Of a DNA stretch of 64,000 bases, positions 46,945-53,206 are shown piece after piece. Source of the DNA: an uncultured Nitrososphaerota archaeon (GTDB taxonomy: Archaea; Thermoproteota; EX4484-205; JAAOZO01). The notes below the pieces were generated by a model. That model searched no databases. It worked only from the letters and a program-made list of their open reading frames with translations, and was not told the DNA's origin. How positions within the stretch are numbered: position 1 is the stretch's first letter; every line of letters starts with the position of its first letter. Both the position numbers and the translations under genes were made by a program. The DNA is taken from positions 49,235 to 113,234 of the forward strand of contig CAYOYV010000005.1 in NCBI GenBank assembly GCA_964408285.1. The letters run 5' to 3'.

Positions 46945-48024
46945 ATGAAGGTCATAGTCACGGGAATAAGCGGAAGCGGCAGGAGTTCCTATCTTCAATC
47001 AGTTCTCCAGTATGCCACCGGGAAGGGGAAACAAGTCAAGATCCTCGAGGTTGGCAACATGATGTTTGCCATTGCCCAAGCTCTTGGCATAACGATACCA
47101 GAGGACAAGATATTGGATCTTTCGCCCTCGACCCTTGGCTATCTAAGGACTGCTGTATTCGAGCAGATACTCCGCGAGTGTAGCCAGAATGAGAATCTCA
47201 TCATTAGCACGCACGCATGCTTCAGATGGAAGAAACACATACTCAATGCATTCGACTTTCACTATCTGAATGAGATAAATCCTGATCTTTACGTCACAGT
47301 CGTCGATGAGCTTCTCCCCATCAAGGCCAGACTGGAAGCAAGCGATCAGTGGAAAGGCCACCTTGACCTGAAGGACATCCTGATCTGGAGAGATGAGGAG
47401 ATCTTCATTACGAAGGCAATAGCGGATTTCCAGAGGAAGCCATTCTATATAATGCCACGAAAGCAACCTCCCGACACCTTATACAGGTTCATGCTTGATC
47501 CAAACTCCAAGAAGGTGTATCTCAGCTATCCAATAACGCATGTGAGGAAGCATGCCGAGAAACTCAGAGCAAAGGATGGCTTTAGAGACAAGCTGAGAAC
47601 GGCAGGAATGGTGATCTTTGACCCAGGAGAGATAGACGACGTCAACGCGATAAAGCTTGCTTCCGACGCGGCTTCCAACAAGAAGGAAAGGCTAGAATTC
47701 GAAACCGAAGGCAACCGGATCCAAGTCCCTACAAGAGAGATCCAGGAAATGAGAGACTACATATATGATCAAATAGTCGCGAGGGATTATCAGCTCATAG
47801 ATCAGAGCGATCTTATAATAGTCTACTATTATATCCCTGTAATGTCCCCTGGCGTTCTCTCTGAGATGTCATATGGCTTCACGAACAACAGAGATGTACT
47901 AGTGGTGTTCAAGGGGCCTGAGAGCCCCTTCTTCCATTATTACTCAACGAGAATATTCAGTGACGAATCAGAGTTGATGCAGTATCTGAAAGAAATCGGA
48001 TTCGTGCGGCAAGGTTCCGGCTAG
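46945..48024 (+). CDS. Archaeal adenylate-kinase-like P-loop domain fused to nucleoside deoxyribosyltransferase-like domain
   Basis: VTGISGSGRS, STHA, WRDEE; C-terminal VYLSYPIT..RDYQLIDQSD..SPGVLSE. Confidence 0.65.
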   Translation: MKVIVTGISGSGRSSYLQSVLQYATGKGKQVKILEVGNMMFAIAQALGITIPEDKILDLSPSTLGYLRTAVFEQILRECSQNENLIISTHACFRWKKHILNAFDFHYLNEINPDLYVTVVDELLPIKARLEASDQWKGHLDLKDILIWRDEEIFITKAIADFQRKPFYIMPRKQPPDTLYRFMLDPNSKKVYLSYPITHVRKHAEKLRAKDGFRDKLRTAGMVIFDPGEIDDVNAIKLASDAASNKKERLEFETEGNRIQVPTREIQEMRDYIYDQIVARDYQLIDQSDLIIVYYYIPVMSPGVLSEMSYGFTNNRDVLVVFKGPESPFFHYYSTRIFSDESELMQYLKEIGFVRQGSG

Positions 48025-48056: not shown

Positions 48057-49115
48057 CTAGAAAATTATGATATTCCAAGGCTTCACACTGACACCCACTT
48101 TTTCACCGATTCTTCTACGCAGCATTCGGTAGGATTCCTTCGGATTGCCCTTGCAATGCACAATGATTCCATTTACGTCTACCTTGGCGGCAATATTGGT
48201 GCCACCGTAGATTACAGCTATGAGTCTGCCGTTGATCAAACCATCTTCAGGTCTTACCACTCTGGTCTCTTCTGGCCTGAACAGAATCTTCGCTTCAGCC
48301 CCCGTTGATGCCCACCATTTCGGTTTCACGACGCGTACTCTTCTCTCGCTCACCGAGATCAGTACGCTTTTCTGATCGATGTTTTCCACGGAACACTCCA
48401 ACTGATTCGACGCTCCAAGGAACCTTGCGGATTTCTCTGTAGGCGGCAATCCATAGACCTCACTCGTCAGGCCGAACGCATCAATCGATCCATCAAAGAG
48501 AATGGCAAGCTGATCGCTCATCAAGACCGCTTCCGTTTGGTCATGAGTCACATAGATCGTAGTAATATTGAGGCTTTTCTGTATCTCCTTTATGACCTCT
48601 GATATCTCGATCTTGAGTGATGGATCTAGGCCCGCAAGAGGCTCGTCGAGCAGCAAGACATCCACTTCAGCAGATATGGCCCTTCCGATTGCAACCCTTT
48701 GCTGTTGTCCGCCGCTCAGCTCATGAGGGTATCTCTTCTCAAGGCCTATCAGCTCAACCATTTCAACTACCTTCTTCACCCTTTGGGCAGTTGATGCCGA
48801 ATCCCTGCCCCTGGCCTCAAGAGGGAAGGATATGTTTTCGTTCACGCTCAGGTTCGGGAATAGGGCCAGATTCTGAAAGACCATTCCCACCCTCCGCACT
48901 GAAGGGGCAAGGTCGGTCACATCCCTGTTTCCGAAGAAAATCCTACCGGAGTCAGGTGTCAGCAGCCCAGCGATGATCTTGAGGACCGTGGTTTTTCCAC
49001 TTCCGCTCGGACCCAGCAAAGCCACTATCGTGCCTGATGGCACATCAAGAGACATGTCATCGACAGCTAGGACTTTCCCATATGCCTTGCTTACGTTTTC
49101 AAGCCTCAAGTTCAT
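48057..49115 (-). CDS. thiQ: Thiamine ABC transporter ATP-binding subunit
   Basis: GPSGSGKT, LSGGQQQR, LLDEP, VTHDQ; operon under a TPP riboswitch. Confidence 0.8.
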   Translation of the reverse strand: MNLRLENVSKAYGKVLAVDDMSLDVPSGTIVALLGPSGSGKTTVLKIIAGLLTPDSGRIFFGNRDVTDLAPSVRRVGMVFQNLALFPNLSVNENISFPLEARGRDSASTAQRVKKVVEMVELIGLEKRYPHELSGGQQQRVAIGRAISAEVDVLLLDEPLAGLDPSLKIEISEVIKEIQKSLNITTIYVTHDQTEAVLMSDQLAILFDGSIDAFGLTSEVYGLPPTEKSARFLGASNQLECSVENIDQKSVLISVSERRVRVVKPKWWASTGAEAKILFRPEETRVVRPEDGLINGRLIAVIYGGTNIAAKVDVNGIIVHCKGNPKESYRMLRRRIGEKVGVSVKPWNIIIF

Positions 49116-50762
49116 CTAGAAAACCTCCAGAGCTTCCTCAGATGCGAACGAGCTGAGAATCTCAGCCGTAATGACAACCACAACTATCAAACCTGTCAAG
49201 GCAGAGGCAAGATCTAGTCTTCTGAGGTCGATCAGGGCAGCCACAGAAACCGGGAGAGGCATGAGGCTTAAGGTGCTGAAGAAATCGGAGAATGTGAACT
49301 CGCTGATTGACGATGAGAATGCAAGCAGAAAGGATGCAACCATCGCAGGAGCCATAAGTGGTATCTCCAACCGAATGAGTCTGAAGATCCTGCTTGCGCC
49401 AGATGTCTCGGCAGCCTGTCTGACCTCCGGTCCTATCTTCAGCCATGACGCCTCAATCACCCTTGATATGAGCGGGACGATTATTGCGACATGCCCGAGC
49501 ACGATCAGCACCCAACTTCCATAGAGCCTAAGCAAACCGAATCCATAGGAGAGCATCATCCCGAGGGCCAAAGAGGCCCTGGAAATCGAAATGGGTATGG
49601 ATAGAAGCAGGCTGTTGAGCCTTCTGATGCTCTCCATTTCTCCGCTCATCCAGATGACAAGCGTCGAGATTGCAAGGGATAGAAAAGAAGCCAGAACAGC
49701 TATTGATAGACTCTGGAGGAAAGCATCGACGAATCTGATTCCGAAACCGAATTCAACACTCATGAGTTGGATGTAGTTATCCAAGGATAGGGAAGTCGGC
49801 ACCAATATGAATGGACCTGTAGACACTGCCTGCGCGAGAATCAGATAGATCGGCAGCAGTTCGACGAGCATCAATAGCGTTGAATAGGCTAGCAGAATTC
49901 TGCCGGCCATTCCTGAAAACAGTGGCCTCGACATCCTTCCCACACGTGGGACTGTCTTTCCCCTAAAGTAGAGCTTCTCCCTAAAGACTATTATGACAAT
50001 AGAGAGAACCATGGTCAGGCATAGCTGGAAAAGGGCGATGGATGCGGATATCGGTCTCGTTCGAGTTGAGTATATCTCGACCTCAAGGGTCGAGAACCTT
50101 CCTCCGATCAGCACAGGCGTGGAATATGAGATGAATGAGAAGGCAAAGATCAGTAGACCTGCAGCCGCAACCGAAGGGAGAAGTTGATTGGCATAAGTTG
50201 CTCTGAAAGCCAGCATCCATCCAGCTCCGGCTACGTTGGCGGCATCTAAGAGTTCTTGATCGACTCTTGAGAATCCTTCTTCCAATATTATGACAGCCAA
50301 CGGCATATAATAGAACACATGAGCAATGACGACCGCCGTCATTGAGTATAGTACGTCAATTATCGGAGCTTGGGCCCCGAGAATAACGTAACCGATCTGA
50401 TTGACCAAACCTCTTTGGCCCAAAAGCATTATCATTCCTTCCGTGACAGCAAATGCAGGTGCAAAGAAAGGAGTCAACATTAGATTTCTCATCAGACCTG
50501 AACCTCTAAAGGAGTATTTTGCGAAGAAATAGGAAATTGGCAGCGCCAGAAGTATTGATGGTATGGTAGATGCCGCGGCTTGGATCGCGGTATTCTGGGT
50601 TAATCTGATTATATACGGATCGGAGAGCAAGGAAGCCAATTGCTGGAGATCTGTCTGGTAGACGATGTAGGCTATCGGAATTAGATAGAAGAAGACCAGG
50701 AAGAAACCAAAGGGAGCGAGAAAGACCAGGCTTTCTAGGCTCCTTTGATTTCTCTTCTCCAT
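49116..50762 (-). CDS. thiP: Thiamine ABC transporter permease
   Basis: Duplicated permease with two EAA-like loops (DAANVAGA, QAAETSGA). Confidence 0.82.
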   Translation of the reverse strand: MEKRNQRSLESLVFLAPFGFFLVFFYLIPIAYIVYQTDLQQLASLLSDPYIIRLTQNTAIQAAASTIPSILLALPISYFFAKYSFRGSGLMRNLMLTPFFAPAFAVTEGMIMLLGQRGLVNQIGYVILGAQAPIIDVLYSMTAVVIAHVFYYMPLAVIILEEGFSRVDQELLDAANVAGAGWMLAFRATYANQLLPSVAAAGLLIFAFSFISYSTPVLIGGRFSTLEVEIYSTRTRPISASIALFQLCLTMVLSIVIIVFREKLYFRGKTVPRVGRMSRPLFSGMAGRILLAYSTLLMLVELLPIYLILAQAVSTGPFILVPTSLSLDNYIQLMSVEFGFGIRFVDAFLQSLSIAVLASFLSLAISTLVIWMSGEMESIRRLNSLLLSIPISISRASLALGMMLSYGFGLLRLYGSWVLIVLGHVAIIVPLISRVIEASWLKIGPEVRQAAETSGASRIFRLIRLEIPLMAPAMVASFLLAFSSSISEFTFSDFFSTLSLMPLPVSVAALIDLRRLDLASALTGLIVVVVITAEILSSFASEEALEVF

Positions 50763-51754
50763 CTATCCAACCACTCCACCACATTCCCAGCTATATCAGA
50801 CTTGAATGTTATCTTCGACTGCGGAATAGGAGCATTTGCCAGTGCTGAGTACGAGGCCCTCGGATTGACGGGATACATATAACCAGCAGGAGAGACGATG
50901 TTCTGTCCTTCAGTGCTTAGAACGAATTCTATGAATTTCTTCGCTATCTCAGGATGCGCAGCCCCTTTGACGAGCCCAATCCCCTCCCTGTATACGAAGC
51001 CCTCTATGGCGGCTGATTTCAATTTGGGCGTCTCAGAATATTCGACATCTGTGTTGAACATGCTCCCTATCGCAACTTCTCCGAGCTTCAGTGCAACGAT
51101 CGACGATGTCCATCCTGAAGGATGAATCTTCACGTTTGACTCTAACGATTTCAAGAATGAGAAACCGCCCTCAGTGCCCTTGACTGATAAAACCCATACT
51201 AGGAATGACAACCCGGTGCCGCTTGAACTTGGATCCTGATAGAAAACCAGTCCCTTGTATTCCGGGCGGAGAAGATCATCCAAGGCCTTGGGTATGGGCA
51301 ATCCCTTTGCCTTGATCACTGTTTCATTATACGTTATCAACACATACCCTTTATCCACAGGGTGAAGGCGATTTGTCGAATCCCATCTCTCGGTTTCCGG
51401 AACCATGCTGAGATTGCCAGGAGTGAAGATTTGCAGGACGTCCGCGTCCAACACCTGCTTTGAGTAGAACTCCGGAAGCCCAAGGATGACATCGGCCTGA
51501 GGCTTGCTCTTCTCCGAAATGAGTTTGTTCGCAATCTCTATTGAACCCATCTCAAAGTGAGCAAAAGTAACATTCACACTGAATCTTTTTCGGAATTCGT
51601 TTATCAATGCCGTTGCCATGCTTCTGATGCCACGAGGGCCATACACCACTAGTCTGTCTTCCAGCTTTGGCTGCATCAATAGGAAAAGAAGAGAACCGAG
51701 AATTGCGATTGCGATGGCACCAGCCATAATCTTCCACTTGCTTCCCACTTCCAT
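50735..51754 (-). CDS. thiB: Thiamine ABC transporter substrate-binding protein
   Basis: EKSKPQADVILG, QDPSSSGTG..FL, GW; N-terminal anchor; AGGTGAGG SD before ATG 51754. Confidence 0.85.
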   Translation of the reverse strand: MEVGSKWKIMAGAIAIAILGSLLFLLMQPKLEDRLVVYGPRGIRSMATALINEFRKRFSVNVTFAHFEMGSIEIANKLISEKSKPQADVILGLPEFYSKQVLDADVLQIFTPGNLSMVPETERWDSTNRLHPVDKGYVLITYNETVIKAKGLPIPKALDDLLRPEYKGLVFYQDPSSSGTGLSFLVWVLSVKGTEGGFSFLKSLESNVKIHPSGWTSSIVALKLGEVAIGSMFNTDVEYSETPKLKSAAIEGFVYREGIGLVKGAAHPEIAKKFIEFVLSTEGQNIVSPAGYMYPVNPRASYSALANAPIPQSKITFKSDIAGNVVEWLDRWRREIKGA

Positions 51755-51815
51755 CTGCCTCACCTTTTCTTGACTCAGGTAAAGGATGCCGTATCGGATG
51801 AGGACGCTTTTTCGA

Positions 51816-51903
51816 GCATCCCTACGCCGGCATTATCCGGATCAGGTTCTGAGGGTTGACGCGCATGACCGCGTCATCTCAGCCAAATATCGGCACCCCT
51901 TGC
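51816..51903 (-). ncRNA. TPP (THI) riboswitch aptamer
   Basis: Minus strand reads GCAAGGGGTGCC..GGCTGAGAT..ACCCTCAGAACCTGATCCGGATAATGCCGGCGTAGGGATGC, the canonical TPP consensus, upstream of thiBPQ. Confidence 0.93.
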
Positions 51904-51927
51904 CTGTCCCCTGGGTTCCTTCTCTCC

Positions 51928-51935
51928 GATATAAG
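51928..51935 (-). promoter_or_regulatory. Probable TATA box of the riboswitch-thiBPQ transcript
   Basis: CTTATATC about 25 nt upstream of the aptamer 5' end. Confidence 0.5.
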
Positions 51936-52102
51936 CATTGGTTCCGTTTGAGAAGAAGAATGAGCAACCAATTGACTTCCGCGCGCCGACTCATTTGGGG
52001 TGACAGGCCGCCAAGGGACTGAGCTTCGCCACTGGAATTTCAAGATGCCTGAACAGAGCGCGCGATGCGCTGTGGGACCAGATCTTGACAACTGGTTCTG
52101 AG

Positions 52103-53206
52103 CTAGACCTTGACAAGATATTGCATTGCTTTCTCGTAGACTCGGATTGTTTTCAGATACTCACTTCTTGTCACGAATTCGCCATCTGTATGAGAGAGCC
52201 TAGGATTGCCGGGCCCGTAGGAAACTCCGTGAATGCCCGTTCTGGCATGAAGCACATTCAGATCGCTGGTGCCCATTTTCCTTATCAGTTGGACGGGTCT
52301 GCCATCCGTCTGAAGGATGCCTCTTGCCAAGGCCCTAACCACCTTATGATTCGGATCTACTTCGTATGGTTCCACTGAATCGCCTGAGAATGACATCTCT
52401 CCAATTATGTTCTTTCTAGTTGAGCAGAAATCATGGAGTCTGGCTTGCAGTGATGACTTCGCGGCCTCTGTTGATGAGCCAACAGGTATTCTGACATCAA
52501 GACATGAAACACATGACTTAGGCGTCACGTTCAGAGACTGGCCCCCACTCATCCTCGTGAGACACACAGTTACTGATTTCCACGGATTTCCTTTTTTTCC
52601 GATTTTCCGACGGACGGAGGCGATAAATTCATGGGAAAGCTCAATCGGATTCGGATAAACCCAAGGAGCGCTTGTGTGTCCTGATTCCATCGCCTTCAAA
52701 CACAGTCTGGCTCCGATCTTTCCCTTGTATCCTACTGTGATTCTCTTGAGGCCGGTCGGCTCGCCGAAAATCGCATAGTCGGCGTCGATGCCGGAGTCCA
52801 TGAGGCCTTCTATGCCCTTTCCGTCTGTCTCCTCCCTCGTGACGGCTGCCACTATAAGTCTGCCATTTCCTAGTCTATCTCTGATTTCGGAACTGGCCAG
52901 AACAATCGCAGCGAGTGCTGACTTTGCATCAACTGACCCCCGACCAAATATGCGCCCGTCTCTCACCTGAACCGGAATTTCCCCAGCGACTGTGTCCATG
53001 TGTCCACACAACAATATCCCAGTACCTGATGCCCCTATCGTGCCGATCACATTTCCAGCATCGTCTGTGCGTACGCTCCTGTATCCGATTCTATTCATGA
53101 TGCTCGAGAGATAGGACGCCAATCTCTTCTCTCGGCCACTAGGACTGTAGATCTTGAGTAGATTCTGAAGGAACTCTATTTTGAAATGATTGCTCAACTT
53201 GACCAA
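52103..53206 (-). CDS. lysK: [LysW]-lysine/ornithine hydrolase
   Basis: M20 motifs GHMDTV, GRGSVDAK, REE, GEP, GTSDLN, YGPG..SHT; last gene of the LysW operon. Confidence 0.9.
   Translation of the reverse strand: MVKLSNHFKIEFLQNLLKIYSPSGREKRLASYLSSIMNRIGYRSVRTDDAGNVIGTIGASGTGILLCGHMDTVAGEIPVQVRDGRIFGRGSVDAKSALAAIVLASSEIRDRLGNGRLIVAAVTREETDGKGIEGLMDSGIDADYAIFGEPTGLKRITVGYKGKIGARLCLKAMESGHTSAPWVYPNPIELSHEFIASVRRKIGKKGNPWKSVTVCLTRMSGGQSLNVTPKSCVSCLDVRIPVGSSTEAAKSSLQARLHDFCSTRKNIIGEMSFSGDSVEPYEVDPNHKVVRALARGILQTDGRPVQLIRKMGTSDLNVLHARTGIHGVSYGPGNPRLSHTDGEFVTRSEYLKTIRVYEKAMQYLVKV

Follow-up and report, generated by a model that had tools for sequence, protein, structure and literature searches.

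The thiamine pyrophosphate (TPP) riboswitch of Escherichia coli thiM, reportedly characterized by Winkler et al. in 2002, is said to be a translational OFF switch, and ThiR, reportedly described by Rodionov et al. in 2017, is said to be an archaeal ThiN-domain repressor of thiamine genes. For archaeal riboswitches, excerpts from PMC5473149 mention TPP riboswitches predicted before transporter genes in Thermoplasmatales (Rodionov et al. 2002, cited there), name TPP and fluoride as the commonest classes, and give a 2017 census that, across all riboswitch classes, counts six riboswitches in Crenarchaeota, one in Korarchaeota, and one in Thaumarchaeota. As of 2021, according to an excerpt of PMC8241225, no archaeal riboswitch had been determined experimentally except that for fluoride in Thermococcus kodakarensis. 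A full-text search of the literature, with most subscription journals outside its scope, returned neither an experimentally tested archaeal TPP riboswitch nor an account of TPP riboswitch platforms in the phylum considered here. We examined a 64-kb stretch of contig CAYOYV010000005.1 (hereafter "the window", meaning the whole stretch) from the metagenome-assembled genome (MAG) of an uncultured Nitrososphaerota archaeon, in which a first-pass annotation had placed a TPP riboswitch with a complete expression platform, naming an Infernal search against Rfam RF00059, a search for thiR, and a survey of related MAGs as ways to check it. Comparative analysis of the sequence confirmed a real TPP riboswitch aptamer, predicted to sense TPP, upstream of the operon of a thiamine-type ATP-binding cassette (ABC) importer. 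Based on folding calculations, we consider it moderately probable that this aptamer belongs to a translational OFF switch on the three-gene importer mRNA.

The RF00059 search returned a single match at 51910–51802 (all window coordinates are on the minus strand unless signed otherwise), covering model positions 1–105 of 105 with 75.0 bits (E 5.8e-13), well over the Rfam gathering score of 54.3 bits. No other Rfam family reached gathering level within the window, and this was the one TPP match in the entire MAG (1.82 Mb, 46 contigs, 93.7% complete). Standard base pairs were found in 27 of the 28 RF00059 model pairs mapped on the window, A51905/C51814 being the exception, and the core from P1 to P1 extends over 51904–51815, with helix P1 formed by 51904–51901 and 51818–51815. 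These limits are nearly identical to those of the canonical aptamer first annotated at 51903–51816, and all coordinates of the first-pass annotation proved correct, every string standing at its place on the minus strand, including GCAUCCUUUACCU at 51789–51777, GUAGGGAUGC at 51825–51816, and the ATG at 51754–51752. Across 29 aptamers of the phylum, the covariation score was 0.358 vs. 0.138 after shuffling (matched by 0 of 500 shuffles), with 91.3% of cells paired compared to 79.8% in shuffled alignments and changes on both sides at 10 of 24 pairs; one helix position in this alignment is G-U in 8 sequences and G-G or G-A in 21. The motifs CUGAGA, ACCUGA, UAAU, and GCG.AGGGA, whose columns we take to be TPP contacts, are all present in the window and are invariant or nearly so among the 29 aptamers. 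Contigs from other sediment metagenomes carry the sequence of the locus unchanged, with zero variants across the four DNA runs compared. The assignment of the host to the TACK-type archaea likewise held, the relatives of the substrate-binding protein (SBP) encoded downstream being recorded as Thermoproteota / Nitrososphaerota.

Two further observations concern the aptamer region. In four sediment metagenomes, read depth at 51819–51861 was 10–100× that of the flanks; this spike comes from short contigs carrying TPP aptamers of other organisms and is not a copy-number signal. A possible extension of P1, GGGAC (51910–51906) with GUCCU (51805–51801), appeared in the locked fold described below and was dropped, as it probably lies upstream of the likely transcript start.

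The elements of the leader, in transcript order, are the following, with the Shine-Dalgarno sequence abbreviated as SD and the minimum free energy fold as MFE:

51929..51936, minus strand: TATA-like promoter box (GCTTATAT), recognized from sequence
51802..51910, minus strand: TPP riboswitch aptamer (RF00059 match, 27/28 standard pairs, covariation in the phylum)
51883..51906, minus strand: aptamer 5′ half (first-helix 5′ strands), partner of the switching strand in the predicted ON state (unconstrained MFE)
51803..51820, minus strand: small hairpin predicted for the ON state, GAUGCU (51820–51815, aptamer 3′ strand) with AGCGUC (51808–51803) (MFE prediction only)
51776..51797, minus strand: putative switching strand, with the anti-SD proper at 51788–51777 (CAUCCUUUACCU) (free vs. 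aptamer-locked folds)
51752..51765, minus strand: SD AGGUGAGG (51765–51758) and start codon AUG (51754–51752) (sequence; genome-wide SD-motif enrichment)

The promoter is of archaeal type. TTATAT occurs at 51934–51929, and the TATA-like box ends 24 nucleotides (nt) ahead of the first P1 nucleotide, close to the distance of about 25 nt noted in the first-pass annotation; a similar box stands 24–34 nt ahead of P1 in all 11 SBP-linked leaders compared. Given this position and the archaeal −26/−27 rule for the distance from TATA box to transcript start, transcription likely starts near 51905, i.e., at P1. No 16S ribosomal RNA gene from which to read the anti-SD was found in the MAG, and SD-motif enrichment before first ATGs was used in its place. 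Genome-wide, counts of GGTG peaked at −13 to −10, with 17–21 occurrences at each position over a background level of 3.8, and an SD-like 4-mer preceded 354 of 1457 open reading frames (ORFs) vs. 166 in a control interval, which points to the use of SD motifs by this archaeon; the AGGUGA of the importer leader begins at −11. We rejected a terminator reading: archaeal termination requires longer U tracts, and termination is unlikely here because no U run in the leader exceeds 3.

In the mechanism we propose, the mRNA would begin at about 51905, so that the aptamer is transcribed first. With TPP bound, the aptamer (51904–51815) would stay folded and leave 51788–51777 free for the SD at 51765–51758, and past a 2-nt internal loop the same strand would pair with GAUG (51755–51752), blocking initiation. 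Without TPP, strand 51797–51776 would instead invade the aptamer 5′ half (51901–51883), while the hairpin at 51820–51803 would occupy the aptamer 3′ strand, leaving SD and AUG open. Since the calculations place the ligand-free fold about 15–20 kcal/mol below the aptamer fold, the choice between them would probably be made during transcription and not at equilibrium.

Both states were recovered in folding predictions. The unconstrained MFE structure of the leader (free fold) lacks the aptamer and pairs 51797–51781 with 51901–51883, a pairing that extends to 51776 and 51906 if an earlier transcript start is assumed. Its energy is −63.5 kcal/mol from 51910 and −59.5 kcal/mol from 51905 (z = −2.05, matched by 3 of 200 shuffles), and the SD is open in the free ensemble (probability of pairing 0.12, per base 0.00–0.58). 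For the locked state, the Rfam structure was enforced and the aptamer core blocked from other pairing. In this fold, 51784–51777 pairs with the SD (51765–51758, 8 bp) and 51788–51785 with GAUG (51755–51752, 4 bp), such that SD and AUG bases reach a pairing probability of at least 0.95, with C51757 (0.04) and A51756 (0.00) unpaired in the internal loop; once the aptamer is locked, overall pairing climbs from 0.12 to 0.64 for the SD and from 0.04 to 0.98 for the AUG. The locked fold amounts to −45.9 or −43.2 kcal/mol according to where the transcript is taken to begin, and the sequestering helix to −11.5 kcal/mol. The duplex between aptamer 5′ half and linker (−28.3 kcal/mol) was matched by only 8 of 3000 linker shuffles, and when the window linker was shuffled within the leader, none of 150 shuffles reached the native MFE (z = −3.79), the native linker forming 27 pairs with the aptamer vs. 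a mean of 10.1. The anti-SD had first been described as having two exclusive partners, the SD and the aptamer 3′ strand; the SD partner stands, and the aptamer partner predicted here is the 5′ half.

We surveyed related genomes for the same arrangement. The MAG falls in a small class of GTDB Thermoproteota that comprises one order and 26 species genomes (G000–G025, G000 being the MAG itself), so that searches by order and by class covered one and the same set. RF00059 matches over the cut-off were found in 11 of these 26 genomes and SBP homologues in 14, and the SBP was accompanied by the riboswitch in 11 of the 14 genomes. Both occur in all 3 genomes formed by the MAG and genus g3, and in genus g6 SBP and riboswitch are confined to one identical set of 8 genomes. 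Beyond assembled genomes, an upstream aptamer was present at 22 of 25 metagenome contig loci with an SBP homologue. In the 3 genomes of genus g2, a plain AT-rich promoter precedes the SBP gene, and these loci gave no aptamer match even at E ≤ 1. This is the closest genus with the same SBP (63–65% identity), and its loci L042 and L043 (from G003 and G001) combine the AT-rich promoter with a short leader.

Genus g6 appears, from modelled folds, to keep the same switching logic with a different sequence. Within its linker, CUACCGCC is a match for the P1 5′ strand GGCGGUAG as well as for the SD GGAGGUGG, and enforcing the ON fold cuts SD pairing from 0.27–0.88 to 0.11–0.21 at a cost of 0–7.4 kcal/mol. 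We also compared ten additional leaders of the type found in the window (L046–L055); of the whole set, the window leader is the cleanest computed switch. In these ten, native linkers form 20–32 pairs with the aptamer vs. shuffled means of 8–17, and the native count was reached by 1–13 of 150 shuffles in 9 of the 10 leaders and by 41 of 150 in L055. Overall, the modelled support of the relatives for the switch logic is real but uneven.

Several loci of the survey deserve mention on their own. In genome G016 of g6, an aptamer of 44.6 bits (L016, G016:C2:89998-90101) lacks the inner-helix 5′ strand and retains the g6 linker sequence, and no SBP gene was found after it or anywhere in that genome; judging from its sequence, it looks like a relic left after operon loss. 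Genome G024 carries two riboswitch and SBP copies (L003 and L017, contigs C12 and C86), the C86 copy being nearly identical to L009 of G021, another species genome, and since G024 is listed with 5% contamination, one of the two copies, that on C86, may stem from faulty binning or from another strain. A more distant SBP clade (51–54% identity; L026 and L064–L068) also has an aptamer, in a 142–147 nt leader with its own CCGCCUC / GAGGCGG type of complementarity to the SD.

A number of results weigh against the proposed OFF switch. The idea that TPP frees the anti-SD to block translation is supported by the folded state, in which SD and AUG are masked, and not by energy: dinucleotide shuffles of the linker, which is C/U-rich, equalled the anti-SD:SD duplex (−13.7 kcal/mol) in 1471 of 3000 cases in one test and in 364 of 1000 in another. 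The ligand-free fold is 14.8–19.6 kcal/mol stabler than the locked fold at 15–55 °C, and P1 is just 4 bp long. The energy of TPP binding is smaller than this gap, and equilibrium switching would fail for this reason, so that the proposal assumes kinetic, co-transcriptional control. In the related leaders, locking the aptamer lifted SD pairing by at least 0.2 in only 5 of 10 (L048 and L050–L053), with essentially no rise in L046, L047, L049, and L055 and an effect on the AUG alone in L054, while AUG pairing dropped in L047, L049, and L051. In the 5′-strand duplex test, values of at most 20 per 1000 shuffles were obtained for the window, L047 (3/1000), and L049 (20/1000) alone, the other 8 leaders ranging from 102 to 482 per 1000. 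Finally, none of the 11 sequencing runs containing the locus is listed as an RNA run, and the start site is a prediction from the promoter.

Some of these results would also be expected if the aptamer were functional and control were exerted elsewhere, through premature termination, ligand-dependent decay of the mRNA from its 5′ end, or a steric effect, with the SD pairing incidental. We consider this unlikely, although it accounts for an SD duplex indistinguishable from those of shuffled linkers and for the roughly half of related leaders in which no SD effect was computed, and although, going by the 2021 excerpt of PMC8241225, a single archaeal riboswitch had been determined experimentally. 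U runs of at most 3 in the leader speak against it, as does the 12-bp helix that covers both SD and AUG in the locked fold, and genus g6, with a different sequence, likewise places a perfect anti-SD between aptamer and SD.

Quite improbable is the arrangement of the first-pass annotation, in which the anti-SD would alternate, as in thiM, between the aptamer 3′ strand GUAGGGAUGC (51825–51816) and the SD. Its overall OFF logic equals that of the model favoured here, and GCAUCC (51789–51784) is a perfect complement of GGAUGC (51821–51816). However, enforcing this pairing gives −50.0 kcal/mol vs. −59.5 kcal/mol for the free fold, 9.5 kcal/mol worse, and the duplex itself (−19.1 kcal/mol) was matched by 553 of 3000 shuffles. 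Nor are the two pairings mutually exclusive as first claimed: they share 2 nt of the anti-SD (51785–51784), and a 6-bp part of the SD helix (UUUACC:GGUGAG) survives in the enforced fold, so that the SD would not be freed. In the free fold, moreover, the 3′ strand has a nearer partner at 51808–51803. Very improbable, lastly, is a weak or decaying regulator thermodynamically stuck in the ON state, its ligand-free fold too stable for TPP to overturn: the gap of 14.8–19.6 kcal/mol between the two folds, the 4-bp P1, and the gene-less relic aptamer of L016 would fit it, but the 75-bit aptamer with 27/28 standard pairs, the identical sequence in other sediment contigs, and the retention of the riboswitch with the SBP gene in 8/8 genomes of g6 and 22/25 metagenome loci do not, and nearest-neighbour energies leave out tertiary and ligand contacts as well as co-transcriptional order.

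The OFF switch we favour would act on an operon that begins 47 nt downstream of the RF00059 match and consists of three tightly packed minus-strand genes, for the SBP, a fused permease, and an ATPase:

50735..51754, minus strand: SBP of an ABC importer, thiB-like, 339 amino acids (aa) (TIGR01254, 127.4 bits, cut-off 93.4)
49116..50762, minus strand: fused two-domain ABC permease, ThiP/PhnU-like, 548 aa (PF00528 in two stretches)
48057..49115, minus strand: ABC ATPase, 352 aa (PF00005, 126.8 bits, plus a TOBE_2 tail)

The permease gene overlaps the SBP gene by 28 nt and is abutted by the ATPase gene. While the SBP passes the thiamine SBP subfamily model TIGR01254 (127.4 vs. 93.4 bits), well outside what chance would give, it falls short of the thiB equivalog TIGR01276 (65.2 vs. 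317), and the ThiP and PhnU2 models align along the full permease with scores under their cut-offs. The solved chains nearest to the SBP are an Fe(III) binder, the pyridoxal phosphate (PLP) binder P5PA, E. coli TbpA (2qry; thiamine), and an aminoethylphosphonate binder, the Fe(III) and PLP binders outscoring TbpA. Because these neighbours bind such different ligands, the likely assignment of thiamine as the substrate comes mainly from the riboswitch.

Around the operon, a LysW-type lysine/arginine cluster lies upstream of the riboswitch, separated from the TATA-like box by a fairly GC-rich spacer of ~165 nt (51937–52102, from the LysW-lysine hydrolase gene stop at 52103) with no Rfam match. 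On the plus strand, a 359-aa gene (46945–48024) converges on the end of the importer operon; its product has an N-terminal P-loop kinase-like domain (AAA_17, with a weak adenylate-kinase match over residues 1–129), the other 230 residues being without any match.

The gene content of the MAG is consistent with a need for vitamin B1 uptake. No ThiC was found in the genome, nor a true Thi4 (short partial Rossmann-motif fragments only), and TMP-TENI gave a weak partial match; neither ThiT nor thiamine pyrophosphokinase (TPK) was found. A ThiL-like kinase is encoded at G000:C14:514-1452 (179.6 bits, just below the cut-off of 184). The ThiN domain PF10120 had 0 matches in this 93.7% complete genome, the control search being positive in 5 genomes including Sulfolobus and Haloferax, and hence no ThiR was found, a check that the first-pass annotation had proposed. 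From its gene complement, the host seems to be auxotrophic for B1, with its sole recognizable uptake system under its sole TPP riboswitch, and the importer may take up thiamine monophosphate or TPP directly. The riboswitch would probably be the main feedback on vitamin B1 uptake in the cell, because the genome has no visible thiamine biosynthesis or ThiR.

ThiN matches elsewhere in the class fell into two groups by frame length, one long (~455–482 aa) and one short (214–325 aa). Three short ThiN proteins were inspected, two of which have an N-terminal extension of ~140 aa, one of these with a weak helix-turn-helix (HTH) match. Short ThiN genes were found in 7 of the 26 class genomes and in 0 of the 11 riboswitch genomes (counts only, the genomes being related), and 2 of the 3 g2 genomes encode one. 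Among the class genomes (L038–L041 and L044), the short ThiN protein is a candidate ThiR, the weak N-terminal HTH being that of L040:431-1372. Species of genus g6 have either the SBP with the riboswitch or a short ThiN beside a long ThiN gene.

At the level of the phylum, RF00059 matched in 29 of 151 sampled genomes from 16 of 77 genera, a sample in which relatives of the window are over-represented. The TPP aptamer is under-reported rather than rare in this phylum, and its initial description as rare in archaea is, with matches in 16/77 genera, overstated here. Twenty other loci of the phylum precede genes for ThiW (10), ThiT (4), ECF-S-like proteins of the energy-coupling factor (ECF) type (2), ThiC (2), an SBP (1), or no gene (1). 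At all 16 aptamers before ECF-type genes (ThiW 10, ThiT 4, ECF-S-like 2), which are of other families, the start of the first long ORF still lies within the RF00059 match, 2–13 nt short of its 3′ end and a few nt past the aptamer GCGGAGGGA (loci L007, L008, L015, L023, L025, and L027–L037; aptamer at ~1501–1615 in each, at 445–557 in L030). Judging from this layout, the GGAGG of the ECF-linked aptamers would itself be the SD, with no separate platform.

A broader reading, which we put forward tentatively and hold as somewhat doubtful, is that TPP riboswitches of the phylum are translation-level switches in two designs, mirror and minimal, with exchange between RNA and ThiR-like protein from species to species. 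In the mirror design, a linker of 35–55 nt may be the reverse complement of the G-rich, SD-like 5′ half of the aptamer, such that one strand may serve as both anti-aptamer and anti-SD, the choice falling during transcription. In the minimal design, seen before ECF-type transporter genes of other families, the aptamer GGAGGG may be the SD, with the start codon 5–9 nt on. Within a single genus, an RNA switch that controls uptake genes and a ThiR-like protein that controls synthesis genes may replace each other by species. If this reading is true, the clade would be a natural test bed for archaeal riboswitch action and for the way in which RNA and protein regulators displace one another.

Taken together, the locus represents a well-known type of device in a little-documented host, and the gain is incremental. 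With very little known of how riboswitches act in archaea, the value of this leader lies in being a small model open to verification at the level of single bases, in which the strands to mutate are already defined, and in belonging to a clade where genomes that have the riboswitch can be compared with those that lost it or have a ThiR-like protein in its place. The riboswitch also identifies the ABC importer that follows it as a probable thiamine system, a point that homology alone leaves unsettled, and it speaks for a host that depends on vitamin B1 from its sediment community.

Compared to known systems, the operon is laid out like the E. coli ThiBPQ thiamine/TPP ABC importer, in which an SBP is joined by an ATPase and by a permease of ~540 aa with two fused domains, with the window SBP in the TIGR01254 subfamily and TbpA among its nearest solved chains, whereas the thiB, thiP, and thiQ equivalog models all score far under their cut-offs. 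ThiR does the same job of feedback on thiamine genes, but as a protein and not an RNA. Like E. coli thiM, the window leader combines an RF00059 aptamer with a following strand able to pair with either the aptamer or the SD, with SD masking predicted when TPP is bound. It differs in that the competitor is the aptamer 5′ half and not, as in thiM, a 3′ segment, that the start codon is predicted to be masked too, and that the leader stands behind a TATA-box promoter in an archaeal host, the aptamer lying at or within a few nt of the likely transcript 5′ end. As in Thermoplasmatales, an archaeal TPP aptamer stands ahead of thiamine transport genes, here in GTDB phylum Thermoproteota. Finally, the T. 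kodakarensis fluoride riboswitch (Speed et al. 2018, cited in PMC8241225) is, as far as an excerpt of the citing paper describes it, likewise archaeal and thought to be translational, with another ligand, another fold, and experimental support, whereas the model presented here is a prediction.

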